Assembly: GCA_050084515.1 (NCBI GenBank)
Contig: CM114271.1
Coordinates: forward strand, 46,748,001-46,812,000
Length of the DNA: 64,000 nt
Direction: 5' to 3'
Origin: Blasia pusilla
Taxonomy: Eukaryota
Shown here: positions 14,855 to 62,984 of the stretch, piece after piece
Numbering within the stretch: position 1 is the stretch's first letter
Layout: the number at the start of each line of letters is the position of its first letter
Program-made: the position numbers and the translations under genes
Notes under the pieces: model-generated
What the model was told of the DNA's origin: nothing
Database searches by the model: none
What the model saw: the letters and a program-made list of their open reading frames with translations, nothing else

Positions 14855-14870
14855 ATAAAGAGAGAATGAG
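14855..14870 (+). promoter_or_regulatory. Putative self-priming primer-binding site, family A
   Basis: ATAAAGAGAGAATGAG directly after a1 is complementary (one G:U) to CTCATTCTCTCTTTGT at 14679-14694, about 30 nt downstream of TATA at 14651. Confidence 0.7.
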
Positions 14871-26900: not shown

Positions 26901-26960
26901 GGTACTCGCTCCACCCAAGGATGTCTGTATCCAAAATGGACAACGCTCCTCATCGGCTTT
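20956..26960 (-). mobile_element. Family A element, nested antisense copy (A-II), 5'-truncated: PR C-term, MTase, RT, RNaseH, integrase, PHD, then PPT-b-a-b
   Basis: 3' end CGACA at 20956 interrupts the RT of A-I. b2 20956-21080; a2 21081-21595; b1 21598-21724; PPT 21725-21737. RT (RMCGDYRPIN, LDLRAGYHQ, PFGLKNAP) ~23889-25016; RNaseH (LHTDWS, TDHQPL); integrase (HAHEELGHFG..CMVC, WSLDF, LIDHGTEF, GLAER) ~22208-23200; PHD ~21918-22053; MTase ~25355-26309. Confidence 0.9.
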
Positions 26961-32454: not shown

Positions 32455-35400
32455 TTGGCATCGGCGTTGGTCATCACGGAGTTGTCTGGTGATCTGGTTG
32501 GGGAGCGTGGTGTGGACAGTGGTGGTTTTACACGGAGTGGATTGAGGTATCGGCTACCTTTTCTACTTCTGACGGTTGATGAAGAGGAGGACGAGGGTGT
32601 TCCAAACACCAAGTCTTCTACATTGTTATCGAGTGTTGCAGCTCCATTGATTTGGGACATGGACGGGATGTATGGGACCATGAAGGGCCCACAAAAATAC
32701 TCGGGTGCAGTGGGCACCATTGAATTGGAGGACTTCATTCAGGAGTTTGACAGTTGGTGTGATATGCAGATGTTGTGGAACGCCACGTTGTTTACACCCT
32801 TCTTGGCTTGGAAGGGGTTGTTTCAGCGCTTGGAGGGACCACCCATGGATAATTACCATGAGTTTAGGAGGGACCATGCTGCTGAGATTGAGACGTGGAG
32901 ATAATATTGGTCTCTAGGCTATATGTCTATCACCCATGGTGGTATTGGTAGTAGTGCTCTTACTATGTCAGCCATCCCGACATTGAGTGTTGCGAGTATG
33001 AGCTGGAGTGGGTTTACCAGTGGAGGTACTAGTGGGGATACTAGTGGAGGTACTAGTGCCCCACCATCGTTCAGCCCGGTTGCAGAGTTCTTCAAGAGGT
33101 TGAAGAAGAATTATCAGGGAGTGAAGATAGAGAAGTTGAGGAGTCTTCAGGAATTCGAGCGAAACACTGGTGAGAGTCTTCGTGAGGCATACACTCGTAT
33201 GCGATGCTTGATTTCAATTATCTAGGGTGTGACTGAGGCTCAGACAATCTAGTTTTGGTATGGGATCTTGGACAAAGAGTTGCGTCGTAGGGTACGTGAT
33301 GCTACTCTTATGAGTGATGATTCACCCACATTGGCCCATAAGTTTGCTGTATCTGAGAAGATTGAGCTTAACATGGTGGAGGAGAGGGTGATGACATCCG
33401 CATTTAGTAGGGATACAACTACTACTTCTCATGTTCAGCTATCCACCTCACAATCTCGTAGTAGTGGTGGTGGTAGTAGTAGTAGTGGGAGTCGTGGGGG
33501 ATCCACACGACCTCAGTTAGGTCCTAGAGGGACGCTTGCACAGAGACCATTGCCTTCATTTGTTGCCCCGCAACAAGGACAGTCATGTTGGACATGTGGA
33601 GGTGATCATGTTAGGAGGTTTTGTCCCCAAGAGGATGGGAGACGGACTTTGGAGGATGGACCTCAGTCAGCCCCAACTCAGTGTGATCATTGTGGGAGAC
33701 CAGGTCATCCTCGAGAGTGTTGCTTTGATCTTCATCAAGAGTTGAGATCAGGCCGCGGCCGTGGTGGAGTAGCTCCGAGAGGCCGAGGTGGTAGAAGTGG
33801 TAGGGTTGGTAGAGGTGGACCAGCGGTTGGAGAGCCTACGGTTGCTGCCCCTACCACTATGACAGTGTCAGCTATGGCTGCCAGGATTGAGCAGTTGGAG
33901 CATAGGTTGGCTACTATGGCTGGTATCCAGCATAGAGCAGGTTCGAGAGCAGCTTCCACCTCTTATGGAGGGGATGATCTCTCTTATATGGCAAGTGCAG
34001 CACATGTTGAGGCATCGGCTGCAGTTACGAGAGGAGCCACTCGAGCATCAGAGCCACGTGGTGCTACTGTGGAGTTGGACCCATAGAGGGGTGAGGCTCG
34101 GAGGCAAGCTAGGCTCCCCCAGTCATTCTTGTTGTTTGAGGTGCTTAGGACTCCATCCATGGTTCCTAAACAACCTATTGAGCCTACAATGGGGACTGAG
34201 GCATCTATATCGCGTGTAGTAGACACGGATGCAACATCCAATGCAGTATTGCGGATGGCAACTTGAGTGTTGGGATCCCCATTGTTTTCATCCACTGAGT
34301 TGATGGCCTTAGGAGTTGACTTAGCTCCTGTATTTCAGCTAGCAGCCATGTTGTGTGAACGTGAGAGTGTTACTGCTACATGTGCTGAGGTGGATGAGGG
34401 TGTTGCGGTGGAGCAACCCTCTATGTCACGTGTAGCATTGAGTACCAGTGCTACTTGGCAGGCAACAACGGCGAAGATGGATGCATTACCAGCCCGGCCA
34501 GCCATTGATTGTGAGAGGCTTAGACCTGGTGTTTGTATGTTGGACAACCGGAGTGGGATCTTCCGATTGGTGAGTCCTACAAGACAAGTGTATAGACCAG
34601 ATAGAGTCTTGTTAGACTCTGGTGCCCAACCTTTCATGTTGGGAAAGGCAGCATGTATTGGTTTGGGTTTTTGGAGGTCAGAGCTTGAGCCTTGCCCATT
34701 CCAGATTCAGACATCACTTGGAGGAGCCAATGATAGGTCTCATTTCATGACATGGGAGAATTTGTCTGTACAGTTGAGACCAGATCATGCGACTGATAGC
34801 TCCAGGTTGGGAGTACCTGAAGTGGTCACATCATCTAAGTCGTATGATGTATTGGTTGGAGGAGCAGTATTGTACCCGATGGGTTTTCAGATGGACTACT
34901 GGATTGAGACAGCGTCTTATAGACCTGGTTGGCAGACCGGGGATGGACGTACGAGCCACGTTCCTGTGAGATTTATTTATGGGGCTTGACCAGGAGGGTC
35001 TTCCCCAACAGTGTTAGCATCTGTGGCTAGTTTTAGCGGAGTAGTCACTTGGCCAGGAGACTTTTTGGAAGGTAACATTTCTACTATGGATTCTCCTGTG
35101 CATGAGGAGGTAGAGGAGGTCCCTAGTTTTGCAGAAGTGGCATCCTCATCGTTGGATGTGCCACTTTGGAGTTCAGGAGGTGCACTACGGTAGGAGGCTG
35201 ATCGCCTAGTGCAGGAGGCTTGGTGTGAGGCTGTTATACCTCCGAGGAAGAGAAGGCTCCACGGCGGACTCCTACTTTTGGTCTAGTTGGATTATCCCCT
35301 TTGGATACTACATCCATTGTAAGGCAGTATCCGTCGGAGGGCATTTGTGTGTTAGATCTCTTTGGTGGGATTAGCATTGGTTTGGCTGCAATGTTGCAGG

Positions 35401-38400
35401 CTGGTATTCCTATGCAAAGATACGTGTATGTGGAGCGAGATGAGGCGGTCCTGAGAGTCTCATCCAGACATATTGGTCAATTGATGCGGAGATATCCTGA
35501 GTTGTTGCCGCCATCAGCTATTCGTGGGTACCGGCGTGCTTTGCCGTCACACATTGCATTTTTGGGAGCGGAGGACCTTTAGAGGGTTGATCTTGTGGAT
35601 TTGGTGATTTCTGGATGGCCATGTCAGGGTCATATACGTGCGTTGGTCGTGGTGAGGGATTACATGACCCTAGGTCTCAATTGTTTTGGGAGATGTTGCG
35701 TGTGTTAGGACATCTTCAGGTTCATTAGGCAGGTGCTCCAGCTTACATTGTGGAGAATGTTCCATTGTTGGGTGACACTCGGACCCGGATAATGGCGAGT
35801 GTTCACGAGGTGCGATCTTGGATTGGACCAGCGGTGTTGTTGGATGCAGCGCGAGTTGGCTCGTGTGTATATTGGCCACGCTTGTGGTGGACAAACTTGT
35901 TGCCTAGGGAGGTTCTACGTCGAGCATATGATGCAATGCAGTGGGATCCTTGCCTTACAATGGATAGTGTCTTGGGTAGTGGGCGACTTTCTCAGGTGGT
36001 GAGGGTTATTGATCGGTCACCTATGGCAGTGGTGAACCGTGTGGGGCAACCTAGGATGGCACTATCCACATTTGTGAGTTTTCCCTTGTCACATGCCTAC
36101 AAGGAAGGTGGTCCCGGGCTTGTATGGGATTCTCATGTGCGACAGTTGGTGGAGCCTAACGCTGATGAGAGAGAGCATGCGTTGGGATTTGCTATTGGTG
36201 TGACAGCGGTTGCTTCTATTTTGGAGGCTTCACGACATCATGTGTTGGGTCAAGCCATGGCCCTGAATTGTTTGACCTGGATTTTGAGTCTTGGTATGGC
36301 CGAGCAGCGTCGGCCATACGGCTTCAGACTATGTCTATGGATCTTCCACCCCTTGTGATGAGCTCGATGGCTACCGGGACGGTAGAGGCATCAACTAGGG
36401 GCGAGGAGAGTAGTATTTTGCATCCTTGGAGTAAATGGGATGAAATGGCTGGGCATGTGGAGTTGGTTGCTCATGTAGTGGAGGAGTTATTTGCTTAGAT
36501 GATGGTGTAGCTAAGGGTGTACCATCTTGTGAGGCGGTTGCATAGCAGCCAATGGCGTCGTCCTTTCCCTCTAGTGTGCCCGTGGAGGAGACTTTGGAGC
36601 CATTACTTGGGCCCAGGCTTACGGGAGGTGAGAAACTATGCTTGACACAGTTCCTACGTGCTTATAGGAGTTGTTTTGCCTTTAGCATGAAGGAGTTGGG
36701 TGCTTTGGTTGGACCCGATATACGGATTGATTTGGCTAGAGATACGCCAATCTTCCATCGTCCCTACCGATATAGTGATATGGAGAGGGATCTGATTGAG
36801 AGTAGGACGTTGGACCTTTTGGAGGCTGGATTAGTGGAGTTTTCGTATGGAGAGTATGCATCAACCATTGTCATGCCTGCTAAAAAGGATGTGCATGGCA
36901 ACTACATGGATAGGCGGATGTGTGGAGATTACTATCCTATCAATCAACAGACCAAGGCCGGAAGGTATGCCATGCCTACATCTGAGGAGATCTTTGATGT
37001 GGTGGGACACGCAAAGATTTTCAGTACTTTGGATCTTCGGGCAGGATACCATCAGTTGCGGATTCGAGAGAGTGACAAGGCCAAGACAACATTTTGGGGT
37101 GTCAACTCTCATGGCAAGGATTTTTTGTACTAGTGGAAATTCTTACCCTTTGGGTTGAAGAATACACCTGCCAAGTTTAAGAGAGTGATGGACAGGATCC
37201 TAGCACGGTTGGATTTTATTTAGTGTTACATTGATGATATCTTGGTGTTCAGTAACACGGTGGAGGAGCATCAGATACATTCGTAGATTGTGTTTGAGCA
37301 GTTGAGAGCTCATGGTCTACGTTTGCATCCAAGAAAGTGTAAGTTCTTCCATGAGGATGTTGAGTACTTGGGTCATGTGATCTATCCAAGTGGTTTGGGA
37401 GTTCAGCAAGCAAAGGTGGAGGCTATTGCACTTATTCCTCGTCCAATAGATGTGAGTTGAGTTCGGGCATTCATGGGATTCGCGAACTACTATCGGAGGT
37501 ATGTGAAGGGATTTAGTGCTATGGCAAAGCCTTTGAACCAATTGCTAAATTAAGTTCAAGAGTGGCACTGGGGAGATTATCAAGAGAGAGCTTTTGTGGA
37601 GCTCAAGGCCCAGTTGATGGTCGCGCCTATCTTGAGGAGACCTATCAGAGGGCGCCCATTTCAGTTGCACACTGATTGGAGTATGTTGGGACTTGGAGCG
37701 GTGTTGACACAACATGATGATGAGCATATGGAGTTTGTGGTGGCCTATGCAAGTCGTTCGAATAATGCAGCGGAGTCGCGCTATAGTTCATATGAGGGAG
37801 AGTGCTTGGCAGTAGTGTGGGTTGTGGCACACTTTAGGTGTTACTTGTTTGGCACACAGTTTACCCCTATTACTGATCACCAACCGTTCAAGTAGTTGAT
37901 GGAGTCTGACAAGCTTACAAGGAAGCTTGCACAGTGGGCTCTTATCTTACAGGAGTATGACTTCCAGGTGGTACATAGACCTGGAGTTGCCAACCTTGAT
38001 GTTGATGGGTTGAGTAGGAATCCATGTACTAGCCAAGAGGATGCAACTAGGGCTAGATGGCATGGCGAGGTTGATGAGGAGATGGTGCCAGGTTGGCATC
38101 CATCTGTCTTTTTATGTTGGTTAGGGGTAGACTCTAGTATGGAGGACCACATGACATCTTACTCTAGTTAGAGGGTAGATGGCCAGCCTTCAGATCCTAA
38201 GGTTGGAGATGGTGGTACGGATCAGCGTGATATTCATGATGATGCGTTGATGTTGGATTTCCTACAGACCAGTAGGATGCCAGGCATAGTGAGTGCCAAG
38301 GAATGAGATCGTGTTCTTCAACGTGCTAGGAGGTATCGATTGGAGGGAACACATATTCTCCGTGTGTGGGAGGATGGTAGAGTACGAGTGATGCCGCATT

Positions 38401-38575
38401 TGGCTCAGAGAGAGCGCATTGTGCGACATGCCCATAAGGAGTTGGGACATTTTGGTATAAAGCGTACGTATAGCTTACTCCTTGGTCAGATATTGGTGGC
38501 GTGGCATGCATACTCAGGTGAAGCAATTGGTGTCACGTTGTATGGTTTGTGACCGGGTGAGGGCATCATTTAATG
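32455..38575 (+). pseudogene. B-I polyprotein, 5' part: gag, protease, DNMT3-like MTase (~35340-36295), RT, RNaseH, integrase N-terminus
   Basis: CWTCGGDHVRRFC and CDHCGRPGHPRECC knuckles; VLLDSGAQP; GICVLDLFGGISIG, LVISGWPCQG (35601-35630), YIVENV, WPRLWWTNL, EREHALGF, HVLGQAM; RT YIDD (~37226); LHTDWS; HAHKELGHFG..CMVC. Confidence 0.88.
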
Positions 38576-41500
38576 TGTCGTGCGAATCCACATCGTCATA
38601 CAACATACATCGTTGACATACCATACTCACATACATACATAACATAGACGAGAGTATCCACAAACACAAGTGTACCACAATTGAAATGCGTGAAAGACCT
38701 ACTGTCATAAAACACGTTTACAATCACATACAATCGAGCCAAACCCACTCCACGATGGGAGAATCTAGGTCGAAGCTTATGGAAACACCATAGCCAAGAG
38801 CTCTACTCACTACCAAGGCTAACTCCCAAATAACAGGCTCAACTCAAAGAACTGATTGTTCTTTGAGTGCACTCCACCTTATATCCTCCAACCTAAGAGC
38901 GGGGCCCACTGGGAAAGTCACCCCAACCGAGTAACCCCAACCCTATGTATGGAACCGCATCTCTACCAATCCACTACGGTCCTACATAAGGAATGGCCTC
39001 TACTAGCACACCATACTCTACGACATAACCGTATGGTCATGACAATTTGTCGTGCCGAATCCACATCGTCATACAACATACATCATTGACATACCATACT
39101 CACATACATACATAACATAGACGAGTATCCACAAACACAAGTGTACCACAACTCGCCCCCTAATCTGGCGGTTAGGTCCTCTAACTCCCGGTAGCCCTAT
39201 ACATCTACTACATGCTATACACCTTCTTGGGTGCCCGAATCGAAGGCCGGTGCTAGGTTGCCCCATCGTTAGTCGCACATCAGTAATCCATATGATGCAA
39301 AGATCAAGTCATCTACCTCTCCTAAGTACATCGAGGACAAACCCACCTTCCAAAGAGAGGAACGACATCCAAACGTGAGTCAAACACATCATGTGCCAAC
39401 CCCTAGAACACCGATCACACACCAACATACGGTGCCGCGTTGCAGTGGACCCACACAACATGCACCTCAAGCTAGCACGTATCATGGCTAAGCTTGGGTC
39501 AACAGTACCATCCACATTTGGAAGATAACATGGCGCACAATTACGCACATGGTCCTTCCAAACAACTCCATCACGACCCTCTAACAAGAGAACTCCGAAG
39601 CCAACACCTCGCGACTTTTCGTAAAATAGTGCGGCCTGCCGTCACATCCAACATTGTCGGTGCAATCTGCTGCAAATAGACATAGTCCCCCACATGGAAC
39701 CTACGAATCGATGGTCGAGAACCTCCACCCCGAATGGTTGCATACCGCAACGTATCCTTGAGTTGAGCAATGGCAAGATTCTCAAAGGCTGTTGGCATAA
39801 CTCTCCGAAAGAGCTCCGCTACCGAGAACACACCCTCATCCACATCTCTCGGGTCATCAAGGTTCACCACCTCACTAGACTCCCGATGAATTCTTTGCTT
39901 TGGCAAGTCCGGATCTCACCGTATAATAGAAAATAAGGTGAGAAGGAAGCCAAGGATGCTTGGCGATTGAACCTATACCCCATGGCTAACCATGGCAACT
40001 GAATATCCCAGTCTCCAAGATGCCCCTTCTATAGGCTATACTTGCGCAATGCCCTCTTCACCGTCTAAACCACACGCTTAGCCAAACCATCCGCCTCTGG
40101 ATGATCTCGAGACGTGGTCCGATGATCAATCAACGCCTTGTCACACAAGACTTGAAACTCACCCGAAACTCGTACCTGGTCGGTCAAGACTTGGTGGTGC
40201 ACCAAAATGACTAAGCACTCTATCTAGAAACGCATACGCCGTTCCTCACTTGCCTTGTCCGGTAATGCCACCAACTCAATCCACTTGGAGAAGTGCTCCA
40301 CCATCACCAACACATATCGATGATGTAAATACCAACGGTAACGGTCCCGCAAAGTCCACACTCCAACGGTAACCCAACCCCATAATAGGCAAGGGGTGTA
40401 ATTGTGGTGTAGGGGCATTAAATGATGCCCTCACCCGGTCACAAACCATACAACGTGACACCAATCGCTGCACTGAGTATGCATGCCACGCCACCAATTC
40501 GCCAAGGAGTAAGCTATACGACGCTTTACCCCAAAATGTCCCAACTCCTCATGGGCATGTCGCACAATGCGATCTCTCTGGGCCAAATGTGGCACTACTC
40601 GTAGTCTACCATCCTCCCCACGCGGAGAATATGTGTTCCCTCCAATCGATACCTCTTAGCACATTGAAGAACACGGTCTCGCTCCTTGGCACTCACTATG
40701 CCTGGCACCCTCTTGGTCCGTAGGAACTCCAACACCAACGCATCATCATGAATATCACGCTGATCCGTACCACCATCTCCAACCTTAGGATCCAAGGTGG
40801 CCATCTACCCCTCGACTAGAGTAAGATATCATGTGGTCCTCCATACTAGAGTCCACCCCTAACCAACATAAAAGGCGGATGCATGCCAACCTGGCACCAT
40901 CTCCTCATCAACCTCGCCATGCCATCTAGCCCTGTTGTTGTATCCTCTTGGCTAGTACATGGGTTCCTACTCAACCCATCAAGCATCAAGGTTGGCAACT
41001 CAGGTCTATGTACCACCCGGAAGTCATACTCTGTAAGATAAGAGCCCTTTGTGCAAGCTTCCTTGTAAGCTTGTCCGACTCCATCACCACTTGAGCGGTT
41101 GGTGATCAGTAACAAGGGTAAGCGGGTGCCAAACAAGTAACACCTAAATTGTGCCACACCCACACTCTTGCCAAGCACTCTCCCTCATATGAACTATAGC
41201 GACTCCATTTGCATTATTCGAACGACTTGAGGCCACCACAAACTCCATGTGCTCATCATCATGTTGTGTCAACACCGCTCCAAGTCCCAACCTACTCCAA
41301 TCAGTGTGTAACTGAAATGGGCGCCCTCTGATAGGTCTCCTCAAGATAGGTGCCGCCACCAACTGGGCCTTAAGCTCCACAAAAGCTCTCTCCTGATCAT
41401 CTCCCCAGTGCCACTCTTGATCTGATTTCAGCAATTGGTTCAAAGGCTTTGCCATAGCACTAAATCCCTTCATATACCTCCGATAGTAGTTCGCCAATCC

Positions 41501-44500
41501 CATGAATGCCCGAACTCAACTCACATCTATCGGACGCGGAATAAGTGCAATAGCCTCCACCTTTGCTTGCTGAACTCCCAAACCACCTGGATAGATCACA
41601 TGACCCAAGTACTCAACATCCTCATGGAAGAACTTACACTTTCCTGGATGCAAACGTAGACCATGAGCTTTCAACCGCTCAAACACCATCTGCAAATGTA
41701 TCTGATGCTCCTCCACCGTGTTACTGAACACCAAGATATCATCAATGTAACACCGAACAAAATCCAACCCTGCTAGGATCCTGTCCATCACTCTTTGAAA
41801 CTCGGCCGGTGCATTCTTCAACCCAAAGGGTAAGAATTTCCTTTGGTACAAAAATCCTTGCCATGAGAGTTGACACCCCAAAATGTTGTCTTGGCCTTGT
41901 CACTCCCGAATCGGCAATTGATGGTATCCGCCGAAGATCAAAGTACTGAAAATCTTTGCCTGTCCCACCACATCAAAGATCTCTCAGGTGTAGGCATGGC
42001 ATACCTATCGGCCTTGGTTTGCCGATTGATAGGACGGTAATCTCCACACATCCGCCTATCAGTGTAGTTGCCATGCATATCCTTTTTAGCAGGTATGACA
42101 GTGGCTGATGCATACCCTCCATGCGACAACTCCACTAATCCAGCCTCCAAAAGGTCCAACGTCCTACTCTGAATCAAGTCCCTCTCCATATCACTATATC
42201 GATAGGGACGACGGAAGATTGGCGTATCACTAGCCAAATCAATCCGTATACCGTGTCCAACCATAGAACCCAACTCCTTCATGCTAAAGGCAAAACAACT
42301 CCTATAAGCACGTAGGAACTGTGTCAAGCGTCGTTTCTCACCTCCCGTAAGCTTGGGCCCAAGTAATGGCTCCCAAGTCTCCTCCACTGGCATACTAGAG
42401 GGAGAGGACGATGCCATTGGTTGCTCATAACCCCTCACAAGATGATACACCCTTAGCTACACCATCATCCGAGCAAATAACTCCTCCACCAAAGATGAGC
42501 AACCAACTCCACATGCCCAGCCATTACATCCCATCTACTCCAAGGATGCAAAATACTACTCTCCTCGCCTTCAACCGATGCCTCTACCGCCCCGGTAGCC
42601 ATCGAGCTCATTACAAGGGTGGAAGACCCACAGACATAGTCCGAAGTCGACGCGTTGCTCGGCCATACCAAGACTCAAAATCCAAGTCAAACAATTCAGG
42701 TCCATGGCGACCCAACACATGACGTCGTGAAGCCTCGAAATAGAAGCAACCACTTTGTCACACCAAGAGCAAATCCCATCGCACGCTCTCTCTCATCAGC
42801 GTTAGGCTCCACCAACTATCGCACATGAGAATCCCATACAAGCCCGGACCACCTTCCTCGAGGCAGGCATGTGACGAGGAAAACTCACAAATGTGGGTAG
42901 TGCCATCCTAGGTGGCCCCACATGGTTCACCATTGCCATGGGTGACCGATCAATAACCCTCACCACTTGGGAAAGTCGCCCAAAGATCCAAGATACTATC
43001 CTTTGTAAAGGCGAGGATCATTTGCCAGACCGCATCATATGCTCGACGTAGAACCTCCCTAGGCAACAAGTTTCTCCACCACAAGCGTGGGCGATGTGCA
43101 CGCTGAGCCAACTCTGTTGCATCCAACAACACCGCTGGTCCAATCCAAGAGCGCACCTCATGAACACTCGCCATCATCCAGTCCGAGTGTCACCCAACAA
43201 TGGAACATTCTCCAAAATGTAAGCTAGAGCACGTGCTCGATGAACTGAAGATGTCGTAACACCCGTAACATCTCCCAAAACAATCGAGACCTAGGGTCAT
43301 GTAATCCCTCACCCGACCAAAGACGTGTATGACCACGACATGGCCATCCAAAGCAATCACCAAATCCACAGGACCAATTCTCTCAAGGTCCTGCGCGCCT
43401 CAACAATGCAATGTGTGATGGTAAAGCACGCTGGTACCCACGAATAGCGATGGCGGCAACAACTCAGATACCTCCGCATCAATCGACCAATATGTCGGGA
43501 TGAGACTCTGGGCCGTCTCATCTCGCTCCACATACACGTATCTCCCGACAGAATACCGGCCTACAACATCTGACCAAACCAAAGTGCTAATCCCACCAAA
43601 GAGATCTAACACACAAATGCCCTCCGGCGGATACGCCATACAATGGGTGTAGTATCCAAAGGGGATAACCTAATCTGGGCCAGTAGTAGGAGTCCGCCGT
43701 GGGGCCTCCTCTTCCTCGTGAGGTATAATGACCTCACACCAAGCCTCTGCACTAGGCGTCGCCTCTGCCGTAGTGCATCGCTGAACTCCAAAGTGGCACA
43801 TCCAACGATGAGGATGCCCTTTGCTGCAAAAATAGGGACCTCCTCTTCCTCCTCATGCGCAGGAGAATCCATAGCGTAAAACATTACCCTCCAAAAAGTC
43901 TCTGGCCAAGTGACTACTCCACTAAAACCAGCCATAGATGCTAACACGTTGTTGGGGAAGACCCTCCTGGTCGAGCCCCGAAATAAATCTCACAGAACTT
44001 GGCTCATACGTCCATCCCGGACGCCAACCTGGTCTATAAGACTGTCTCGACCCAAGTAATCCATCCGAAAACCCATCGGGTACAATATCGCTCCTCCAAC
44101 TAGTACATCATACGACTCGGATCGATGTGACTACCGCAGATACTCCCAACCGGAGCTATCGATCGCATGATCTGGTCTCAAACTGTCATGTAAAACTTCT
44201 CCCGTGTCATGAATTGAGACCTATCATTGGCTCCTCCAAGTGATGTTTGAATCGGAATGGGCAAGGCTCAAGCTCGACCTCCGAATACCCAAACCAATAC
44301 ATGCCGCCTTTCCCAACATCAAGGTTGGGCACCGAGTCTAACAAGACTCTATCGGTCTATACACGTGTCTGTAGGACTCACCAATCGGAAGATCCCACTC
44401 CGGTTGTCCAACATACATACACCAGGTGTAAGCCTCTCACGATCAATGGTGGCCGGTGGTAATGCATCCATCTTCGCCGCCGCCGCCAAGTAGCACCGGT

Positions 44501-47500
44501 ACTCAATGCTACTCTCGACATAGAGGGTCGCTCCACCGCAACACCCTCATCCACCTCAACACGTGTAGCAAGAATAACACCCCACGTTCACACAACGTGG
44601 TCGCTAATCAAATACAGGAGCTAAGTCAACTCCTAAAGCCATCACTCCGTGGCGAAAACAATGGGGATCCAACACCGAAGTTGCCATCCGCAATCTTTGC
44701 ATTGATCTTTGCATCCGTGTCTACTACACGCGATGTAGATGCCTCAATCCCCACTATCGGCTCAATAGGCTGCGAGGAACCATGGATGGAGTCCTAAGCA
44801 CCTCAGACAACAAGAATGACTAGGGAAGCCTAGCCCGCCTGACCTCACCCCTCTGTGGGTCCAACTCCACAATAGCACCACGTGGCTCGACGCTCGAGTG
44901 GCTCCTCTCAGAATCGCACGGTGATGCCTCAACTTTTGTCCGCACTCGCCATATAAGAGAGATCATCCCCTCCATAAGAGGTGGAAGCCCCTGCTCCCGA
45001 ACCTGATCTATCTTTGGATACCGACCATAGTAGCCAACTTCTCGCTCCAATCGCTCAATCGGCAGACCATAGTCGACTTCGTAGTGGTAGGGGTAGCCAC
45101 CGAGGATCTCCAACCACCTGGTCCACCTCTACCACCCCTACCACCTCTACCACCTCGGCCTCTCGGAGCTACTCCACCACGGCCACGGCCCATGATCTCA
45201 ACTCGGATGAAGATCAAAGCAACGCTCTCGAGGATGACCTAGTCTCCCGCAATGATCACACCTGAGTTGGGGCCGATCGAGGCCCATCCTCCAAAGTCCG
45301 TCTCCCATCCTCTTGGGGACAAAACTTCCTAACATGATCACCTCCACATGTCCAACATGATCGTCCTTGCTGCGGGGCAGCAAATGAAGGCAATGGTCTC
45401 TGCACAAATGTCCCTCTAGGACTTGATCGAGGTCGCGTGTACCCCACGACTCCCACTACTACTACCACCACCACTACTACGAGATGTGAGGTGGGCGGTG
45501 AACACGAAGTAATAGTTGTATCCCCCCATGAATGCGGATGTCACCACTCTCTCCTTCACCATGTTAAGCTCAATCTTCTCGAGATAGAGCAAACACATGG
45601 GTCAATGTGGGTGAATCATCACTCATAAGAGTAGCATCACGTACCCCCTACGGCGCAAATCTCTGTCCAAGATCCCATACAAAATGGATGCTGATCCTCA
45701 ATCACACCATGGGTAATCGAAATCAAGCGCCGATACGCGTGTGTATGCCTTACGAAGACTCTCACCAGTCTTTCGCTCAAAGTCCTGAAGATTCCTCAAC
45801 TTCTCCGTCTTCACTCCTTGATAGTTCTTCTTCAACCTCTTGAAGAACTCTACAACGGGCTAAACGATGGTGGGGCACTAGTACCTCCACTAGTACCCCC
45901 ACTAGTACCTCCACCGGTACCCCCACTCCGACTGCACTCATTACCACTCGCGTTGGGTTTTGGTGGCATAGTAGGAGCACTACTACCAATACCACCATGG
46001 GTGATAGACACATAGCCTGGAGACCAATATTGTCTCCATGCTTCAATCTCAACAACATGGTCCTTCCTAAACTCATGGTAATCATCCATGGGTGGTCCTT
46101 CCAAATCTTTGAAACAACCCCTTCCAAGCCAAGAAGGGTGTAAACAACGTATGCGTTCAACATCGCATATCACACCACGTATCAAACTCCTGCATGAAGT
46201 CCTCCAACTCAATGGTACCCATTGCACCGAGTATCGTGGGCCCTTCATGGCCCCATATCCACCGTCCATGTCCCAAATCAATGGAGCGCAACACTCGATA
46301 ATAACGTAGAAGACTGGTGTTTGGAACACCCTTGTCCTCCTCTTCATCAACCGTCGGAAGTGGAAAAGGTAGCCGATACCTAAATCCACTCCGTGTGAAA
46401 CCACCATTATCCACCACGGTCCCCAACCAGACCACCCGACTGACTCCCGTGATGACCAACGCCGATGCCGCACCACCACCAAATTACCCAAGTGACGCCG
46501 ATGTCGCTCTACTATTGTAGCTCTACTAGCTATGGGTGTAGGCAATCTAACCTCTCATCACTACAAGAAGCCTCCCACGGTCTCATGGTCATCACTCCAC
46601 CTCACTACCGGTAGCAGGGGAGTAACACTACTCTGGAAATCAGCGTCAACCCTAACAATGGGCGCGCAAGCAAGAAGCACGATGGAGGGGATCCAAACAC
46701 AGGAAGTCCAACGACAACCCTCCAACCGCAAATGGAAATCAAGGTAACACAATCCACCAAACGTGGTGCCCCCTGAATCCACAAAACCCACCACACAATT
46801 CTAACGCAATAGCTACTCCGCCGCGGGTCGATGACGTACTAGTCGAACTCGCAGCACCTGAAAATATCACCTGCATGGAGAGGCTACACCGTACTATGCG
46901 CTAGAGGTACATCAACCAAAAACCTGAGATGCATAAAGCGCCTAACACATCTCCGAATAGCACCAAATGAGCTACAACAGTCTGTACACTAGCATAGTTA
47001 AGAACTCAGCAGTTAAGCGTCCTCCAGGCAGAATAGCCCAAAGATGGGTGACCATTTATGCAAAACTCAAATCCCAAATCCTGCAAAAATTGCCTCACGC
47101 CCAAGCAAGCAAGCTTGATTGCTTGCTCCTTGCTCCTTACTCCGCCTCTCACGCCCACTCGCCCCGAGCTACCACGAGTTGCCTCGAAGCCTCAAAACGC
47201 CGAGACATGCCCCTATCGCCCCGTTCGCCATGCTTCGCTATGGAGAGAGGTCCAACCAGGGCGCCCCCAACGGGATAGGCGTCTCCAACAATGAACGAGT
47301 CACCAACCAACCAGCCCCTCCGATCCGCGAAATTTCGATCAGAAATTCTTCACAAATACGTGACCGAAATCAAATCTGTTTCGATCAAAATTCAATTGAC
47401 CACCATAGCTATCTCCCCACAAAAACTCAGCTACAACCGAGCTCCATACTCCGAGCTAAAAATCAGACAAACTTGCTGTCCATACAACTCTATAACCGCA

Positions 47501-48288
47501 AATCCGACAGCGCTTCCGCCAAGTTTCATGAACGCAGAAATCCGCAACGCTCCACGCACTCGAGCAGATAGCTTCACATGAGATCACAATACAAGTAGCA
47601 ATAGGAACCTCTCACCCGATCTGGATGAACTTCAACAGAGCTTCCGCACTCCAAGCTCTCCACATCAGAAAATTGTCGAACATGAACCAGAATCTTCAAT
47701 GCTTGATAACTTCCAACTCCCTTGACGAAATCTGGCGATCTATAGCGCGTTGGAAAGCTCTCAGCAAGGCGCTTCTTTCCCAACCAACCACGCACCTGAT
47801 TCACACCTCCAACATAGGCAACAAGCCCCGAACATCCACGGCTGAGTACACAATCAACCCTAACCAGATCCTACTGATCTACAATCGAAGCTACCATCGA
47901 TCTACTCCAGTTCTTTGAGTGAAATGCGTGAAAGACCTCTTTGTCATAAAACACGTTTACAATCACATACAATCGAGCCAAACCCACTCCACGATGGGGA
48001 GAATCTAGGTCGAAGCTTATGGAAACACCATAGCCAAGAGCTCTACTCACTACCAAGGCTAACTCCCAACGCATAACAGGCTCAACTCAAAGAACGATCG
48101 TTTCTTTGAGTGCACTCCACCTTATATCCTCCAACCTAAGAGCGGGCCCCTTTGGGAAAGTAACCCCAACCGAGTAACCCCAACCCTATGTATGGAACCG
48201 CATCTCTACCAATCCACTATGGTCCTACATAAGGAATGGCCTCTACTAGCACACCATACTCTACGACATAATCCGTATGGTCATGACA
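38576..48288 (-). mobile_element. Family B element, complete nested antisense copy (B-II, ~9.7 kb) inserted in the B-I integrase
   Basis: Starts TGTCATGA (48288), ends CACGACA (38576), TSD AATG (38572-38575 / 48289-48292); removing it restores RASFNAPTP. a1 47920-48288; PPT ~39153-39163; b1 39048-39152; a2 38682-39044; b2 38576-38681. Gag ~46500-45000, PR ~44340, MTase ~43621-42665, RT with YIDD 41516-42450, RNaseH, integrase, PHD ~39329-39464. Confidence 0.92.
47909..47920 (-). promoter_or_regulatory. Putative self-priming primer-binding site, family B (equivalent at 30890-30901 in B-I)
   Basis: Minus-strand ACTCAAAGAACT directly after a1 is complementary to GTTCTTTGAGT (48085-48095), about 31 nt downstream of TATAAG (48126). 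Confidence 0.7.
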
Positions 48289-49388
48289 AATGCCCCTACA
48301 CCAAAGTTACACCCCTTGCCTATTATAGGGTTGGGTTACTGTTGGAGTGTGGACTTTGCGGGACCTTTACCGTTGATTGTACGACATCATCGATATATGT
48401 TGGTGATGGTGGAGCACTTCTCCAAGTGGATTGAGTTGGTGGTATTACCTGACAAGGCAAGTGAGGGAACGGCATATGCGTTTCTTGATAGAGTGCTTAG
48501 TCATTTTGGTGCACGAGCTGAGGTGCTGACTGATGAGGGTACAGAGTTTCAAGGTGAGTTTTAGATCTTGTGTGACAAGGCGTTGATTGATCATCGGACC
48601 ACGTCTCGAGATCATCTAGAGGCGAATGGTTTGGCTGAGCGTGTGCTTCAGACGGTGAAGAGGGCATTGCGCAAGTATGGCCTATAGAAGGGGCATCTTG
48701 GAGACTAGGATATTCTGTTGCCATGGTTAGCCATGGGATATAGGTTCAGTCGCCAAGCATCCTTGGCTTCCTTCTCACCTTATTTTCTGTTATACGGCCG
48801 AGATCCAGACTTGCCATTAGCAATTTGTCGGGAGTCTAGTGAGGTGGTGGACCTTGATGACCCAGAGATGTGGATGAGAGTGTGTTCTCAACGGGCAGAG
48901 CTCTTTCGGAGAGTTATGCCAACATCCTTTGAGAATCTTGCCATTGCTCAACTCAAGGATACGTTGCGGTATGCAACTATTCGGGTGGAGGTTATCGACC
49001 ATCGATTCGTAGGTTCCATGTGGGGAACTATGTCTATTTGCAGCAGATTGCACCAAAAACGTTGGATGTGACGGCAGGCCGCACTATTTTACGAGTGCGA
49101 GAGGTGTTAGCTTATGGAGTTCTCATGTTGGAGGGTCGTGACGGAGTTTTTTGGAAGGACCATGTGCGTAATTGTGCGCCATGTCATCTTCCAAATGTGG
49201 ATGGTACTGTTGATCCAAGCTTAGCCATGATACGTGCTAGCTTGAGGTGCATGTTGTGTGGGTCTGCTGGTAACGCAGCCCGTATGTTGGTGTGTGATCG
49301 GTGTTCTAGGGGTTGGCACATGATATGTTTGACTCCACGTATGGATGTTGTTCCTACTGGAAGGTGGGTTTGTCCTCGATGTACTTAG
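48289..49388 (+). pseudogene. B-I integrase core and C-terminal PHD finger (continuation after B-II)
   Basis: WSVDFAGPL, VLTDEGTEF, GLAERV; CMLCGSAGNAARMLVCDRCSRGWHMICLTPRMDVVPTGRWVCPRC (C4-H-C3) at 49248-49382. Confidence 0.9.
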
Positions 49389-50439
49389 GAGGGGTAGATG
49401 ACTTGATCTTTGCATGATATGGATTACAGATGTGCGACTAACGATGGGGCAACCTCACACCCAACCTTTTGACTCGTGCACCCACGAAGGTGTATAGCAT
49501 GTAGTAGATGTATAGGGCTACCTGGGAGTTAGAGGGACCTAACCACCAGTTAAGGGGGTGAGTTATGATACACTTGTGTTTGTGTATGCTCTCGTCTATG
49601 TTATGTATGTATGTGAATATGGTATGTCAACGATGTATGTTGTATGACGATGTGGATTCTCACGACAGCTCTCATGACCATACGGATTATGTCGTAGAGT
49701 ATAGTGTGCTAGTAGAGGCCATACCTTATATAGGGCCATAGTGTCTAGGTAGGGATGCGGTTTCATACATAGGGTTGGGGGTTACTCCGTTGAGGGTGAT
49801 TTTTCCAGTAGGGACCGCCCTTAGGTTGGAGGGTATAGTGTGGAGTGTACTCAAAGAACAGTTAGTTCTTTGAGTTGAGCCTGTTGCGTTGGGAGTTAGC
49901 CTTGGTAGTGAGTAGAGCTCTTGGCTATGCTGGTTCTCGCAAGCTTCGACCTGGATTCTCTCATCTTGGAGTGGGTTTGGCTCGATTGTATGTGATTCTA
50001 TAGGTGTTTTATGACAGTAGGTCTTTCACGGATTTCAGTTGTGGTACACTTGTGTTTGTGTATGCTCTCGTCTATGTTATGTATATATGTGAGTATGGTA
50101 TGTCAACGATGTATGTTGTATGACGATGTGGATTCGCACGAAAATGCCCAATCTATGGGCCCAACAAAGGGGCAATGTATTGTGGACCATTGCAGACCAC
50201 AATATATCATGCACGGTGTTGTGAAGTTTGTTTCATAAGAGCACAAAGAGGGGATGGGTCTCATAGGAGAGCCATTGATTGCCATCAACATGCCTTGCAT
50301 CATGAATTGTATAGATTGGATGGTACGTAGAGGTGAGATCTTGTGTGCTTAGTCTGACAACAAACACAAGTTATGGTTGGAACACCTCACCTTATTAGAC
50401 TATGAGTATCCAAAGTATAGCTTCACTAACTATCTATAT

Positions 50440-50524
50440 TATTATGGGAGAGCGCCTTTTTGATTTCCAAACACCTCTTTGTTTGACATGTGGCAATTAG
50501 GTAGCAAGAAAATATTTCACATGG
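50440..50524 (-). repeat. Dispersed copy of the ~100-bp MITE-like repeat seen at 790-1500
   Basis: gagagcgcctttttgatttccaaacacctctttgtttgacatgtggcaattaggtagcaagaaaatatttcacatg matches the reverse complement of ~1103-1180. Confidence 0.6.
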
Positions 50525-52591
50525 TATCGGAACCAAAAAGAAATTTTGAATTTGTGTGCAATGTCATTAATCCCTACCCTTCACGGGCTATAGACTAGCA
50601 AAAACTCTTCAACATTTTTTTTATTTTCTTTGCCTCGCACGGTACCTTACTAATTTCTATGTATTTTAAACATATCCAAAATTTGATGACACAAATGTGG
50701 CATTTGTGTCATATTTATTTTAAACAGTTAATTGCATACCTCTCAAATTTTTGTGCTATTATTTGTGACCCATTTTCTTTTTGCATTCCTCCACCCTGGA
50801 AAGACATACACATGGCAAGGATTATGCCCCTTTATTAACGGGATTTCACCCTTAGGCTTCGGCCCTTCTCGATGGCTATGTCCAATCATTTTTTTGATTC
50901 ATTTCTTTTCTTGCTTTGTACTTCACCCACTGAAGACGTGGCCAATTAAAAGAAACCTCCGGAACGGCTGATTCCGCTACTGTCACGCGCTGTCCTTCCG
51001 CTTTCCCCTTCACTTACCACGGTAACGAACCTCTACGCTAAACTAAACGAGGTTAAAGAAACTACTCCCAGAGCTCGTCAAATCAGCCGTAGTAAAGTTA
51101 CTCGCGAAGTCGACACCTAAGCGTGACTTCGTCGAGGCCAGTACAATGTCGGCCACGTGTAGCCAGATCTGTGGCGAGCAGTCCGTAGGCGACCGCCTTT
51201 GAGAGCGAATCTTTGGCCCAAAACGGACGGGACGGAAGTCAGGGGACGCCCAAGGGCTGGGGACGATTGGCAATCTGACAGCCCCCCCCCCCGCCCAATG
51301 GTGCCCGAAACAAATACCGGCGGAAAATAGCCCTTTTGGGGTTATGGTCCCCGGAACCGGAAAGCGCATCATGGCGAAGTATTTAGAAAGGAGGAGGAGG
51401 AGGAGGAGGAGGACGGTGACGACGTCGACGCGGGGTTCGCCTACGTGGCGCTGGGGTTGCTGGTCTGGAGATTAGCGCAAGAAAGCTGGCACGGGTTGAT
51501 GCGAACGAAGACTAACGAACGCCTCCCAAATAATGGAAGGAACTCGAGAAATCATTGCGGGTAGAGGAAAGCCTGGAAAGGTTCGCGGCCCAACCTGACC
51601 GTGGTTAGATCAACTGGAGGGAGGAAGGGAGGGAGGGTGGATGGAAAGGGGACCCCGTCGGGCTATGGGTTATTTTAGTAGCTAAATATAGATGACCGGG
51701 AGAGACCCAGCTTGCAACGCGCGAGAAGAGAATATCCACGCCGGGTCAACCGGTGCGCAACCCGCAACGATTGCCCAATGCCGCTCGACAGAAGGGAGGG
51801 AGAGGATGTGCGAGAGAAGTTCCGGACGTAATCGCATGATTAACATCACGTTTCGTGGCGATTGATTAGAAGCGTCACGCACGAGTCCAACAGAGACTTG
51901 ATCCCAGGCAAGAAAGCCTCCTCTGCCTCCGTTCACCGAAAGAGAGAGAGAGAGAGAGAGAAAAGGACCAAGTGTAACACGGGCCCGTTTGACTATTACG
52001 CATCGGTTTGGGGTTTCACTCCAGGTTCGGAGGACGGTGACTACTGTTGCATCGTCGTGTTTTAATTGGGCCATTATTCTCCTAGTGCAGCCACTGTACC
52101 CTGGGCATAAGGATGTGACTTCCTCCTTTGCCACTCCAGTTCGGCAGGAGAAGAGCGAGAGAGTGTGAGCACAGCAGCTCTCCTCGTTGAAAGAGACGCA
52201 GGGTGGGCGAGAGGGCTCCAGGAAGGGGAGGGTTGAACAGCAGCGGGCCCGTTCTCTTCTTGCTCTGTATCGTCCGTTTTGACTCTTGCAGTCGCTGGCC
52301 TCCTCGCTCTCCAAATCAGACGAGCGATAATACCTCTCTGCCATTCTTCTCATCTCACCGTAGGACTTCTCTTGCCTCCTGTCCATTCCCCCATCGTGTG
52401 ATTGGCGCTGGTGATTGCTTTGCGGATTGCATTCTCCATCCTCTGGCGTCCTACTCGTGGCATTCTCGATTTCCTGCAGCCCACTTTGCAAGAGACTAGT
52501 AGCTGATTCTTCTTGCGGTGTCACTTTCATTTTCAGGCTCCTTCTACAGGTCGAGTGTGAGATCTATCCGTCTAATAGACAGCCAAGCAAC

Positions 52592-55531
52592 ATGAAGGCT
52601 CTGATATTGGTGGGGGGCTTCGGCACCAGGCTGAGGCCGCTTACGCTCAGTGTCCCTAAGCCTCTTGTGGATTTCGCCAACAAGCCCATGATCCTCCATC
52701 AGGTGTGTCTTTTCTGCTTGGTCAAAGGCGTGAAACTGCAATTCACAGTGCACCTTATGAATTGCGGGCTGGCGCGGAAAGTGAAGATCCCAATGCTCAC
52801 AACAGAGCTGTCGCTGCGATTAAGCATAATGTCGACGATATTCACGACTCGGTCTCGAGGCATCTATTGTCACGCCTTCCAAAATCGCGAACCTTTGAAG
52901 TAAATTGTGATCGCATCAGTTAGAGTGTCCAATCATTGATGCCGGAGAAGGTACAATTGTCGCCAGTACAAGGAGACGCCTCCGAAACTTCTGGTTTCGG
53001 AGTGGCGGACGAGAAACGAACCCTGAGCGATCGTTCTTTGGTCAGGGCTAAGTGCCCTGATGTGGCTAAAGGTGTTAGTGGGGACCAACGTTAGAAGAAA
53101 GCCATCATATGCCATGGAGTCACTGATGTTCTCTTTTCTTGCAGATCGAAGCGTTGAAGTCAGCCGGAGTTACTGAGGTCGTTTTGGCAATCAACTACCA
53201 ACCCGAGGTACACTTCAATTTCTTCGGAGATATCAACTATCTGAGATTTGCTGCTCTTGGGGGTGTTTGTGCCCTCGTGGTTGTCTACCCATGAGTCGAG
53301 TGACACCGTCTATAAACTAGTGGAATGCGTCGTGATCACAGTAGATCTCGCCGTAGCCATGAATCTACGAATGGCAGAGGCACCACTCTCTGTTATCCTC
53401 CCCATGAAGTAAACAGCTGCCACAGAACACCATCATGGACAGACGAGGCATTGGATATAGATCTGCAATTCCAGTAGCGTTGTCGAGCCGGAGAAAACTT
53501 TTTTCACTTTCGTCTACAGAAAGTTGGATCTTTCGTTCTCGTCTTAGAGAACACATGAATTCCCATGATCTTTTCTCCTTCCAGCCTTCCGCAAAACAGA
53601 GTGAAAGGGTAGTGTCCATCGCTTTCGCTCCAGCGATCAACAAAGGCGACCTTGCGCCTTTCGGTGACCTGGCTGTCTTAAAAAGGTCGACTGATATTAG
53701 ACAGTGGTCCAAGTGACGCCACCTGACCTGTGGACGCCTCGGCACAAACTGTATGAGGCTGGCATCTGCGACTTGATCGTGAAGATTCTGTTCTTGGAGA
53801 CGGCTCCAACGTGAAGCTGCTGATCGTTTGCTTGACAATCCCAGCTCTCGCTTTCCGATTAGGAGATCCACGTAGTTGATTGCGTTGAATGAGATTGGCA
53901 ATTTCCATTCCTCTCTCTTTGTACGGGTGGTCGTGGTGCTAGTTCCATATAACAAATAGGTAAACTAATGCGGTACCCACCTCCTTGCGATGTCAAATGC
54001 GCTGACCGATCGAATGTAACGGCGTGCAGGTTATGCTGACCTTCCTGAAGGAATTCGAAGCTAGATTGGGTATAAAAATTGTTTGCTCCCAAGAAAGAGA
54101 GCCCATGGGAACAGCTGGCCCCCTGGCTTTGGCACGAGATATACTGGCTGATGGATCCGGTGAACCTTTTTTCGTTTTGAATAGCGACGTGATCAGTGAA
54201 TATCCACTGAAAGAAATGATTGTATTTCACAAGAGCCATGGTGGTGAGGCTTCTATCATGGTTACCAAGGTACTGGCCCAGTGCATTTTTTTCGCATTTC
54301 CGCGTCCAGATAGTACCGGTGGATGTGAAGTTTCTTCCAGTTCAGTTTCTCTTTGGAAACTCATGTTCTCTGCCCCGACCGAATTCTGTCCTGCAGGTAG
54401 ACGAGCCCTCCAAATATGGTGTGGTGGTCATGGATGAAGCAAGTGGAGAAGTTCAGCGATTTGTCGAGAAGCCTCAGATGTTTGTCGGAAACAAAATCAA
54501 TGCTGGTATCTATCTTTTGAACCCCAGCGCTCTCAACAGAATAGAGCTACGGCCTACTTCCATCGAGAAGGAAGTGTTCCCCAAGATTGCTGCCGAGAAG
54601 AAGTTATTTGCTATGGTACTTCCAGGTTTCTGGATGGACATCGGTCAACCCCGAGATTATATCACAGGTACACAACCGCAAGAAGTGACTCCTCAAATCT
54701 ATATGCTCTCCCGAATGCTGAGTGCATAGCTTAACTACGTGATTACGAAGTCCTCGCGCGCTTTTGAGTCCCTTGATGCTAGAAGTTATTCATCGATGCT
54801 AGAAGTGTGAAAGTTAGACAAGTTGCGGCCAAACCGCGATTCGGGTCATCCTGAAAGCAGCACCTCATACTCCACGATGAAAATGAAATCTGTGTGGAAC
54901 TTTTTCACTCGTAACGTAATGATAGGGTTTGCTGGGGGAATTGATTTCTCTTGTTTGAAGGAAAGACCTCAAACCTGGTCGTGAAAGCGATCATTGTAGA
55001 TTTATGTCCTGTCTAGTTTTCAGATGTTGATGGGTCTCATTGCTTTGTTCCGCGAGTCTTTACATGGTGAGGTAGGCCTTGACATATGCGACACGCCAGC
55101 TCTCACTCACACCTTGAAGCGGAATTCCAGGTTTGCGCCTCTACTTGGATTCCCAGAGGAGGAGGCATCCAGAGGTCCTCGCCACGGGTGTTCATGTGGT
55201 GGGCAACGTGGTTGTTGATGAGACCGCCCAGATTGGAGAGGGCTGCTTGATCGGCCCTGATGTTGCAATTGGTCAGGGCTGTGTCATAGAGAGTGGAGTC
55301 CGGCTCTCTCGTTGCACCATCATGCGTGGAGTTCGAATTAAGAAACATGCGTGTGTTTCTGGCAGCATCATTGGGTGGCATTCTACAATCGGACAATGGG
55401 CTCGAGTAGAAAACATGACTGTGTTGGGAGAGGATGTGCACGTTTGCGATGAAATATACAGCAATGGTGGAGTCGTTCTACCACACAAGGAAATCAAATC
55501 GAGCATCCTCAAGCCTGAGATTGTGATGTAG
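52592..55531 (+). CDS. VTC1: GDP-mannose pyrophosphorylase (mannose-1-phosphate guanylyltransferase), 361 aa, 5 coding exons
   Basis: Exons 52592-52702, 53145-53207, 54030-54269, 54397-54667, 55131-55531 sum to 1086 nt, all introns [82 protein letters not shown], hexapeptide repeats, ending ..ILKPEIVM. Typical plant CYT1/VTC1. Confidence 0.96.
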
Positions 55532-62980: not shown

Positions 62981-62984
62981 TATT

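Follow-up and report, generated by a model that had tools for sequence, protein, structure and literature searches.

Split-repeat Ty3/Gypsy retrotransposons with a DDE integrase in Blasia pusilla, read as circularly permuted long terminal repeat elements

Split direct repeats are the textbook mark of retroelements with a tyrosine recombinase, and two long terminal repeats (LTRs) the mark of those with a DDE integrase. How, then, can one element combine the repeats of the first class with the integrase of the second? The question is raised by a 64,000-nucleotide stretch of Blasia pusilla DNA (assembly GCA_050084515.1, contig CM114271.1, positions 46,748,001 to 46,812,000 of the forward strand; hereafter the window), and in particular by the retrotransposon B-II at 38576-48288. 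An earlier note, made from the sequence alone, had described B-II and two further copies, B-I and A-I, as Gypsy-type elements with the layout a–internal–b–a–b in place of two LTRs, and had taken this to be a lineage-wide and possibly undescribed architecture. The window copies are nested, decayed members of a streptophyte lineage of Ty3/Gypsy elements, of the type represented in print by KnitGypsy-Dnmt3 (de Mendoza et al., 2018; PMC5890265).

The layout of A-I, B-I and B-II is borne out by self-BLAST, by alignment of the element ends and by target duplications that are exact in all three. Copies of families A and B are nested or related within the window, B-II (minus strand) having inserted into the integrase gene of B-I (plus strand), and each copy reads a–internal–polypurine tract–b·NN·a–b, where NN is a short spacer. 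Their parts are as follows.

38572-38575: target duplication AATG on the 3' side of B-II, the same four nucleotides standing at 48289-48292
38576-38680, minus: B-II b2, the terminal b, which closes at 38576 with the conserved integrase end ...CACGACA
38681, minus: one extra nucleotide at the B-II a2/b2 junction, read as joined cDNA ends
38682-39044, minus: B-II a2, starting TGTCATG at 39044; TATA-like motif at 38877-38885, self-primer segment at 38843-38852
39045-39047, minus: B-II spacer of 3 nt between b1 and a2, the abutted-ends site
39048-39151, minus: B-II b1, directly 3' of the polypurine tract
39152-39163, minus: B-II polypurine tract, a G-run
39164-47904, minus: B-II internal region, degenerate (Pfam, tblastn), with DNA methyltransferase (DNMT)-like sequence at about 43624-43040, reverse transcriptase (RT) and RNase H (RH) at about 42384-40619, integrase at about 40613-39918 and PHD finger at about 39596-39378
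47905-47919, minus: B-II primer-binding site, adjoining a1
47920-48288, minus: B-II a1, the sole 5' repeat, starting TGTCATG at 48288; TATA-like motif at 48120-48128, self-primer segment at 48086-48095
48289-48292: target duplication AATG on the 5' side of B-II
30543-38575, plus: 5' part of B-I, interrupted by B-II, with a1 at 30543-30890, primer-binding site at 30891-30905, DNMT-like sequence at 35334-36307, RT-RH at 36582-38168 and integrase zinc finger at 38307-38549
48289-50143, plus: 3' part of B-I, with rve at 48250-48561, PHD finger at 48933-49385, polypurine tract at 49550-49562, b1 at 49563-49667, spacer at 49668-49669, a2 at 49670-50037, an extra G at 50038 and b2 at 50039-50143; target duplication ATGC at 30539-30542 and 50144-50147
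14343-28369, plus: A-I, the whole element, target duplication CCTT, containing the inverted duplicated block A-II
14343-14855, plus: A-I a1, with self-primer segment at 14679-14692; primer-binding site at 14857-14870
27588-28369, plus: A-I 3' end, with polypurine tract at 27588-27600, b1 at 27601-27727, spacer at 27728-27729, a2 at 27730-28244 and b2 at 28245-28369

Repeat a measures about 350-370 bp in family B and 513 bp in family A, and repeat b 105 bp and 127 bp. Within one element the two copies of a are 95.7% identical over 371 nt in B-II, 88% in B-I and 91.6% in A-I, and the two copies of b 95.5%, 95% and about 90%. Downstream of a1 the 5' end runs on into non-repeat sequence, not into b; a complete b·NN·a unit is present once only per inserted copy, and two identical terminal LTRs are not found. 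The element termini are TGTCA...ACGACA, mutated in B-I, and the chance that a single 4-bp duplication matches exactly is about 1/256. All window copies are degenerate, the longest stop-free stretch within 30000-50500 being 277 aa.

As the earlier note had claimed, this layout goes together with a Gypsy-order DDE integrase, TG..CA ends and 4-bp target duplications. Pfam recognised RVT_1, RT_RNaseH_2, Integrase_H2C2, rve and a C-terminal PHD finger, in Gypsy order, in the stop-free pieces of the window; the closest solved protein is Ty3 Gag-Pol (7q5b, E 4e-98), and the D,D-35-E triad (D684, D744, E779) is invariant in all 27 aligned relatives. The order protease (PR), RT, RH, integrase (IN) with a DDE (rve) integrase, by which Ty3/Gypsy elements (Metaviridae) are recognised, is present from RT onwards in the window and, with a protease match below the Pfam cut-off, in the intact relative L002. 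The other hallmarks of Ty3/Gypsy elements are there too, namely a primer-binding site after the 5' repeat, a polypurine tract before the 3' repeat, TG..CA termini and a short target duplication. No tyrosine recombinase (Phage_integrase) was found by Pfam in the window open reading frames (ORFs) scanned or in the two ORFs of L002.

The methyltransferase of the earlier note stands at the level of distant homology. The window DNMT-like fragments have no Pfam match and lie upstream of RT, where tblastn aligns them with the DNMT-bearing N-terminal parts of the relatives P0025/P0028 at E values from 7e-10 (B-II) to 7e-58 (A-II, B-I); Pfam DNA_methylase is present in P0025, P0046, P0108 and L002. The first ORF of L002 has a weak aspartic protease match (below the Pfam cut-off) and the methyltransferase, and the second has RT-RH-IN-PHD, so that the gene order of the intact relative is a possible Gag, then PR-DNMT-RT-RH-DDE integrase-PHD. 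One in-frame stop at 5083-5085 of L002 splits the ORF with the possible Gag, PR and DNMT (1369 aa) from the RT-RH-IN-PHD ORF (1047 aa), which suggests stop-codon read-through for pol expression.

The integrase fragment of A-II matches polyproteins of the liverworts Riccia sorocarpa (84%), Calypogeia fissa (78-80%) and Marchantia polymorpha, and also of Sphagnum fallax and Klebsormidium nitens (52-58%). Its K. nitens matches are DNMT-bearing polyproteins, which also match the pre-RT region. Many further relatives carry RT-RH-IN-PHD, and some add a C5 DNA methyltransferase domain. Compared with a protein cluster atlas, the window RT piece met generic RT clusters only, and none of the 28 matches in a pattern scan of viral contigs was a relative of the lineage.

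These K. nitens matches bear on novelty. KnitGypsy-Dnmt3 of K. nitens was described as having DIRS-type repeats with Gypsy domains (legend to Fig. 4c), the DIRS-type arrangement being A-coding region-B-A-B (legend to Fig. 1e), and its acquisition was placed 'in the K. nitens lineage' (de Mendoza et al., 2018; PMC5890265). Like the window elements, it joins such repeats to a Gypsy-type pol, and its polyprotein includes a DNMT3-like domain, to which the window elements have a counterpart at the level of distant homology. The architecture was therefore already in print, but barely, and the suggestion that it was undescribed has to be given up; the earlier note had itself said that an existing description of split-repeat Gypsy elements would remove the novelty of the layout. 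The main-text passages searched hold no target duplications, no analysis of primer-binding site or polypurine tract and no mechanism for KnitGypsy-Dnmt3, our literature search found no other account of split-repeat DDE elements (the papers that it found on split direct repeats deal with tyrosine-recombinase elements or are general, and KnitGypsy-Dnmt3 was named in no second paper), and the passages of the REXdb survey searched make no mention of PHD, Marchantia, Klebsormidium, methyltransferase or this lineage. The window elements differ from KnitGypsy-Dnmt3 in that their nearest named relatives are liverwort proteins (78-84%) and in that they are decayed, with a DNMT region recognisable by tblastn only.

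Is the layout a property of the lineage or of this locus? A profile of 27 polyproteins confirmed 525 of 598 candidate metagenome stretches, of which the best 80 loci were kept; a and b were mapped on all 80, and duplicates of one place were removed to leave distinct ends, from which the counts of 5' and 3' ends are taken. Each of the 16 distinct 5' ends is a-only, the 400 nt that precede each 5' a being free of b. At the other end of the elements, 43 distinct 3' ends comprise 20 long ones (polypurine tract–b·NN·a–b), 17 short ones in which the polypurine tract and b are followed by flank (a–internal–b, with at least 400 bp of contig beyond), three with b·a and no b2 (rearranged or truncated) and three that are undetermined. 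Conventional two-LTR copies, a majority of which would, according to the earlier note, have reduced the window copies to local rearrangements, number none among the 80 loci, and the mirror form a–b·a–internal–b is absent from the 16 distinct contig 5' ends and the four window 5' ends. The a–internal–b–a–b layout is lineage-wide and no local rearrangement.

Complete copies number 14 (three from the window, and six long and five short from contigs), and their target duplications are exact over 4 bp in eight, match at three of four positions in four and do not match in two. Exact 4-bp duplications also flank two short forms, L006 and L032. The short forms, which may be either primary insertions (both LTRs cut, or a 1-LTR circle) or deletions between b1 and b2, were seen at L004, L006, L009, L011, L012, L022/L027, L024, L032 and L033, and further at L035, L036, L051, L065, L067, L069, L075, L077 and L079. 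Two other loci have ends of their own kind. L039 has polypurine tract–b·NN·a (7554-7715, 12985-13457) with no b2 after a, and an inverted b (positions 16-179) 5 kb upstream, probably an inversion with its breakpoint at the a|b joint. L021, an intact distant relative (9171 bp, 41% identity), assembles as a circle: its contig ends overlap by 123 identical bp, which leaves a 9048-bp unit, and an ORF of about 2100 aa crosses the joint. Between its polypurine tract and the abutted-end site lies a short b, only about 55 nt long. The circle may be collapsed identical repeats or real circular DNA.

What the repeats are for is suggested by where they begin and end. In every copy b begins at the first nucleotide after the G-run polypurine tract. 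Repeat a gives way to a site that opens with 9-16 nt exactly reverse-complementary to a stretch halfway along a. In B-II the first 10 nt of the primer-binding site (11 counting the last base of a) exactly reverse-complement the segment at 48086-48095 inside a1, and a TATA-like motif lies about 31 nt upstream of that segment. Ten of 20 elements, the four with 5' ends in the window among them, have an exact complement of at least 10 nt between the sequence after a1 and the middle of a, compared with 41 of 6000 control windows, and four unrelated self-primer/primer-binding-site sequence pairs covary across the families. Passages of PMC6317226 define self-priming by a complement to the 5' repeat that is 10 nt or longer and begins 0-5 nt downstream of that repeat, and all four window 5' ends have one. 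A canonical tRNA primer-binding site (TGG right after a1) is absent from the copies read.

These positions suggest that the RNA probably starts in the middle of a. With b starting at the polypurine tract and a ending at the self-primer site, the functional LTR unit would be b·NN·a, in which b and the first half of a would make up U3 and the second half of a R-U5. The inserted copy is then a circular permutation of an ordinary element with b·NN·a LTRs. In its priming the lineage resembles the Tf1/sushi group and the plant Tcn1 clade, where the site after the 5' repeat likewise complements a repeat segment corresponding to the predicted 5' end of the RNA. The likeness is one of priming: elements of the Tf1/sushi group and the Tcn1 clade are bounded by two ordinary LTRs and in most cases carry a chromodomain, whereas the window lineage has a permuted LTR and an integrase PHD finger.

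The inner joints of the b–a–b end are of two kinds. Every family has kept the start of a and the end of b strongly conserved; the start of b and the end of a show no such conservation from one family to the next. In b·NN·a two conserved integrase ends (...ACGACA and TGTCATG...) are abutted across a spacer, which is 2 nt long in all contig copies read and in B-I, A-I and L021, and 3 nt in B-II. At the a2|b2 junction the end of a meets the start of b with 0-1 extra nt in the window copies. The b–a–b end of the earlier note is thus present, with these spacings between its parts. Among 15 related contig copies the a|b junction is blunt in six and short of 2 nt in six, with one copy each at -1, +1 and a 5-nt loss plus G, and three of these types occur inside one clade with 100/99 support. 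On a tree of 15 tips the types require six changes, which is not below what shuffled labels yield (mean 7.2, with six or fewer in 18% of shuffles). The a|b joint looks like joined cDNA ends, variable between copies.

The repeats were also compared in trees. The a1 and a2 copies of the same element are sisters in three of five elements (unresolved in two). Neither the a1 and a2 copies nor the b1 and b2 copies fall into opposing groups, and the b alignment has no column in which b1 differs as a class from b2, the lack of such class-specific columns being all that the b1/b2 tree, with 21 of its 25 inner branches open, is usable for. Both copies of a repeat within one element thus derive from one template. 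At the internal abutted-end site of family A (27719-27745 and 21580-21606) we also observed TA/TA where the true termini have CA/TG, on both sides; this may be decay or a change blunting cutting there, and family B is without it.

Based on these observations, we propose a model for the insertion of these elements, to which as a whole we would give a probability of roughly 0.55. Transcription would start midway through a1, some 30 nt downstream of the TATA-like motif. The RNA would fold back so that its first 10-16 nt pair with the site after a1 and prime minus-strand DNA, as in Tf1, the G-run before b1 priming plus-strand DNA. Ordinary reverse transcription would then yield b·NN·a–internal–b·NN·a, with the start of b and the end of a as its ends. 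We propose that the integrase ignores these cDNA ends; its recognition ends would sit abutted 2 nt apart inside each LTR. The cDNA ends would be joined as a|b, either before integrase cutting, by formation of a 2-LTR circle, or after it, through host repair or a template jump. At the abutted site of the upstream LTR the integrase would nick after CA on both strands, 2 nt apart, and the processed CA-3'OH ends would be inserted with a 4-bp stagger. The product would be the circular permutation a–internal–b·NN·a|b with a 4-bp duplication. In this scheme b1·NN·a2 would hand the termini to the next generation, the start of a1 and the end of b2 never being copied, and short a–internal–b copies would be dead ends, unable to replicate because they have no 3' R.

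Parts of this arrangement have counterparts elsewhere. In the circle junctions of bacterial IS3/IS30/IS256-type insertion sequences (ISs), only a few base pairs separate the two abutted ends, which a DDE enzyme can nick on both strands, and b·NN·a resembles them in its abutted ends and short spacer. Retroviral 2-LTR circles contain a U5|U3 joint, which a|b resembles; they are regarded as a dead end, the integrase working on linear ends. In the window lineage, unlike in those circles, the conserved ends lie inside U3 and the cDNA-end joint is kept in every long-form copy. PAT-like and Ngaro elements of the DIRS order share the arrangement A1-internal-B1-A2-B2, and in them too the internal B1-A2 joint stores the sequence of both termini. 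They use a tyrosine recombinase, however, and are not known to make a target duplication, whereas the window lineage has a DDE integrase, TG..CA ends and 4-bp duplications, and its polypurine tract before b and self-primer site after a define an ordinary LTR unit. That the LTR is an ordinary one that has been permuted (polypurine tract|b ... a|primer-binding site), which the earlier note had missed, speaks against a mechanism like that of PAT/Ngaro.

Several observations weigh against the proposed model. Every step beyond the identification of b·NN·a as the LTR is one that we infer. From a circle whose two sites are identical, the mirror form a|b·NN·a–internal–b would be expected as often as the long form, and none was seen; the polarity needs an extra assumption, and we can only speculate that the upstream LTR becomes double-stranded first or that mirrors collapse to short forms. 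The junction types show some clustering on the tree, where two small groups are all short of 2 nt. The a|b joint may therefore be partly inherited, or primer cutting may be lineage-specific. An exact self-primer match is absent from 10 of the 20 elements, these being mutated copies. Furthermore, the complete long and short copies are all decayed, with repeat identities of 87-96% and longest ORFs of 137-494 aa in the contig copies, and the contigs of the intact relatives L001, L002 and L021 end inside a, so that b2 is not displayed.

Other routes were weighed against this model. If the elements replicated as DIRS, PAT and Ngaro elements do, a full-length RNA from a1 to b2 would be copied, b1·a2 would serve only as the bridge or template that restores the untranscribed tips, a2|b2 would be inherited, and the DDE integrase would merely insert the product. 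The layout is identical to that of the split-repeat tyrosine-recombinase elements, the sole published description reads it in this way (legends to Figs. 1e and 4c of PMC5890265), and the junction types show some clustering. Given that b starts at the polypurine tract and a stops at the self-primer site with single-nucleotide precision, as expected of cDNA ends, that a|b junctions vary among close relatives, that no column splits b1 from b2 while a1 and a2 of one element are sisters, that the scans of the intact relative and of window ORFs turned up no tyrosine recombinase, and that target duplications are present, we consider this route quite unlikely. A variant of our own model dispenses with the circle: the integrase would cut the upstream LTR on linear cDNA, keep hold of the released b fragment and insert the start of a together with the end of b, the remaining break, where the end of a faces the start of b, being sealed by the host or bridged by an RT jump. 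This would account for the blunt, +1 and microhomology-type a|b junctions, for the short forms (17 of 43 distinct 3' ends) as the outcome of cutting both LTRs, and for the missing mirror forms if the upstream LTR becomes double-stranded first, as the standard scheme of reverse transcription would have it. It leaves a chromosome break to mend at every insertion, and on present data it is indistinguishable from the circle route; we think it unlikely.

The remaining candidate, ordinary two-LTR Gypsy elements whose ends were locally rearranged or mis-assembled in the window, draws on the A-I/A-II block, which shows that local rearrangement occurs here. It is refuted by the target duplications and by a census without conventional copies, and we give it next to no credence: the layout recurs in three independent window copies with exact duplications and in 20 distinct 3' and 16 distinct 5' ends from other assemblies, and it has been published for K. 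nitens (PMC5890265).

The A-I/A-II block and the remaining related sequences of the window are listed here.

20956 to about 26958, minus: A-II, an inverted copy of the 3' two-thirds of A, with b2 at 20956-21081, a2 at about 21081-21595, b1 at about 21598-21724 and polypurine tract at 21725-21737, followed by PHD, rve, RH, RT and DNMT-like sequence
60967-61594, minus: solo a+b of family C, with a from 61594 to about 61111 and b at about 61110-60967
62064-62528, plus: family-C 5' end, a only; at +4 a 14-nt site complementary to position 288 of a

A-II has the same 3' end as A-I, as the earlier note had seen, but it is not an independent further case. The b1 copies of A-I and A-II are 98.4% identical and the b2 copies 97.6%, whereas b1 and b2 inside either copy share only about 90%. 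Because identity between the copies exceeds identity within them, A-II is, as read from these repeats, a post-insertion inverted duplication of the already aged 3' end of A-I, with no insertion of its own. A-I is without about 2.4 kb that correspond to 22342-24744 of A-II, and the block looks like an inversion or duplication inside one old element rather than a nested insertion. In family C the 5' end at 62064 is a-only as claimed. The solo was rightly called a+b, but it has no target duplication (flanks CTCT versus AAGG). A family-A a at 63050-63559 (minus) abuts RT-region sequence at 62953-63048, and hence belongs to an internally deleted copy, and the adjacent fragment at 63598-64000 (minus) is part of a further related element, with about 50-57% amino acid identity to B-I.

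Contigs of four DNA runs were placed on 47300-50300, where the best-matching run contributed 76,263 contig pieces on 3 kb, a very high copy number; the contigs of this abundant run are mostly about 100-200 nt long, less than is needed to connect b·NN·a with the primer-binding site, or the polypurine tract and b with flank, and so to tell long, short and mirror forms apart. The family was found in runs labelled as three organisms. Contig cover stops at the element end at 50141-50143, other copies have the end of a followed by the letters of the primer-binding site, and in three runs there are contigs that read through 48289 as an empty site, with no B-II inserted.

The window also contains pieces of host genes at 52415-54726 (plus) and 6226-6654 (plus), which by Pfam are two NTP_transferase ORF fragments and one AFG1-like ATPase; we take the NTP_transferase fragments to be a sugar-nucleotide pyrophosphorylase-type gene with introns. 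The elements therefore sit between ordinary genes. Other repeats are a short dispersed one of about 95-150 bp, present in both orientations and resembling a miniature inverted-repeat transposable element (787-1504 and 50431-50584), and a perfect-looking 77-bp tandem duplication of 98.7% identity (2113-2266).

What is new relative to the published description is the extension to bryophyte-type hosts, the target duplications, the self-primer, the permuted-LTR reading with its internal abutted-end site, and the frequent repeat-less form. The lineage breaks the rule by which split repeats mean a tyrosine recombinase and two LTRs a DDE integrase. It reaches land plants, with protein relatives named from liverworts and Sphagnum, and its repeat-less a–internal–b form is nearly as common as the long form (17 versus 20 distinct 3' ends). 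LTR finders would pair a1 with a2, place the 3' boundary one b-length away from the true end, report the element as lacking a target duplication and overlook the short forms, and annotations of bryophytes and charophytes probably under-call the lineage.

The broadest claim is that a retroviral-type DDE integrase lineage, conserved from charophytes to liverworts and mosses, obligatorily uses an abutted-end site inside U3 and inserts end-joined cDNA, through an intermediate that is 2-LTR-circle-like or co-integrated. We hold it tentatively, at somewhat short of even odds. An internal abutted-end site for integrase is an idea that was abandoned for retroviruses, and if the claim is true, these elements would be a natural system in which a retroviral-type integrase acts on such a site. 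Among eukaryotic retroelements they would also be what the circle-junction pathway is among bacterial ISs, and DIRS-like split repeats would have arisen here by a route distinct from that of the tyrosine-recombinase elements.

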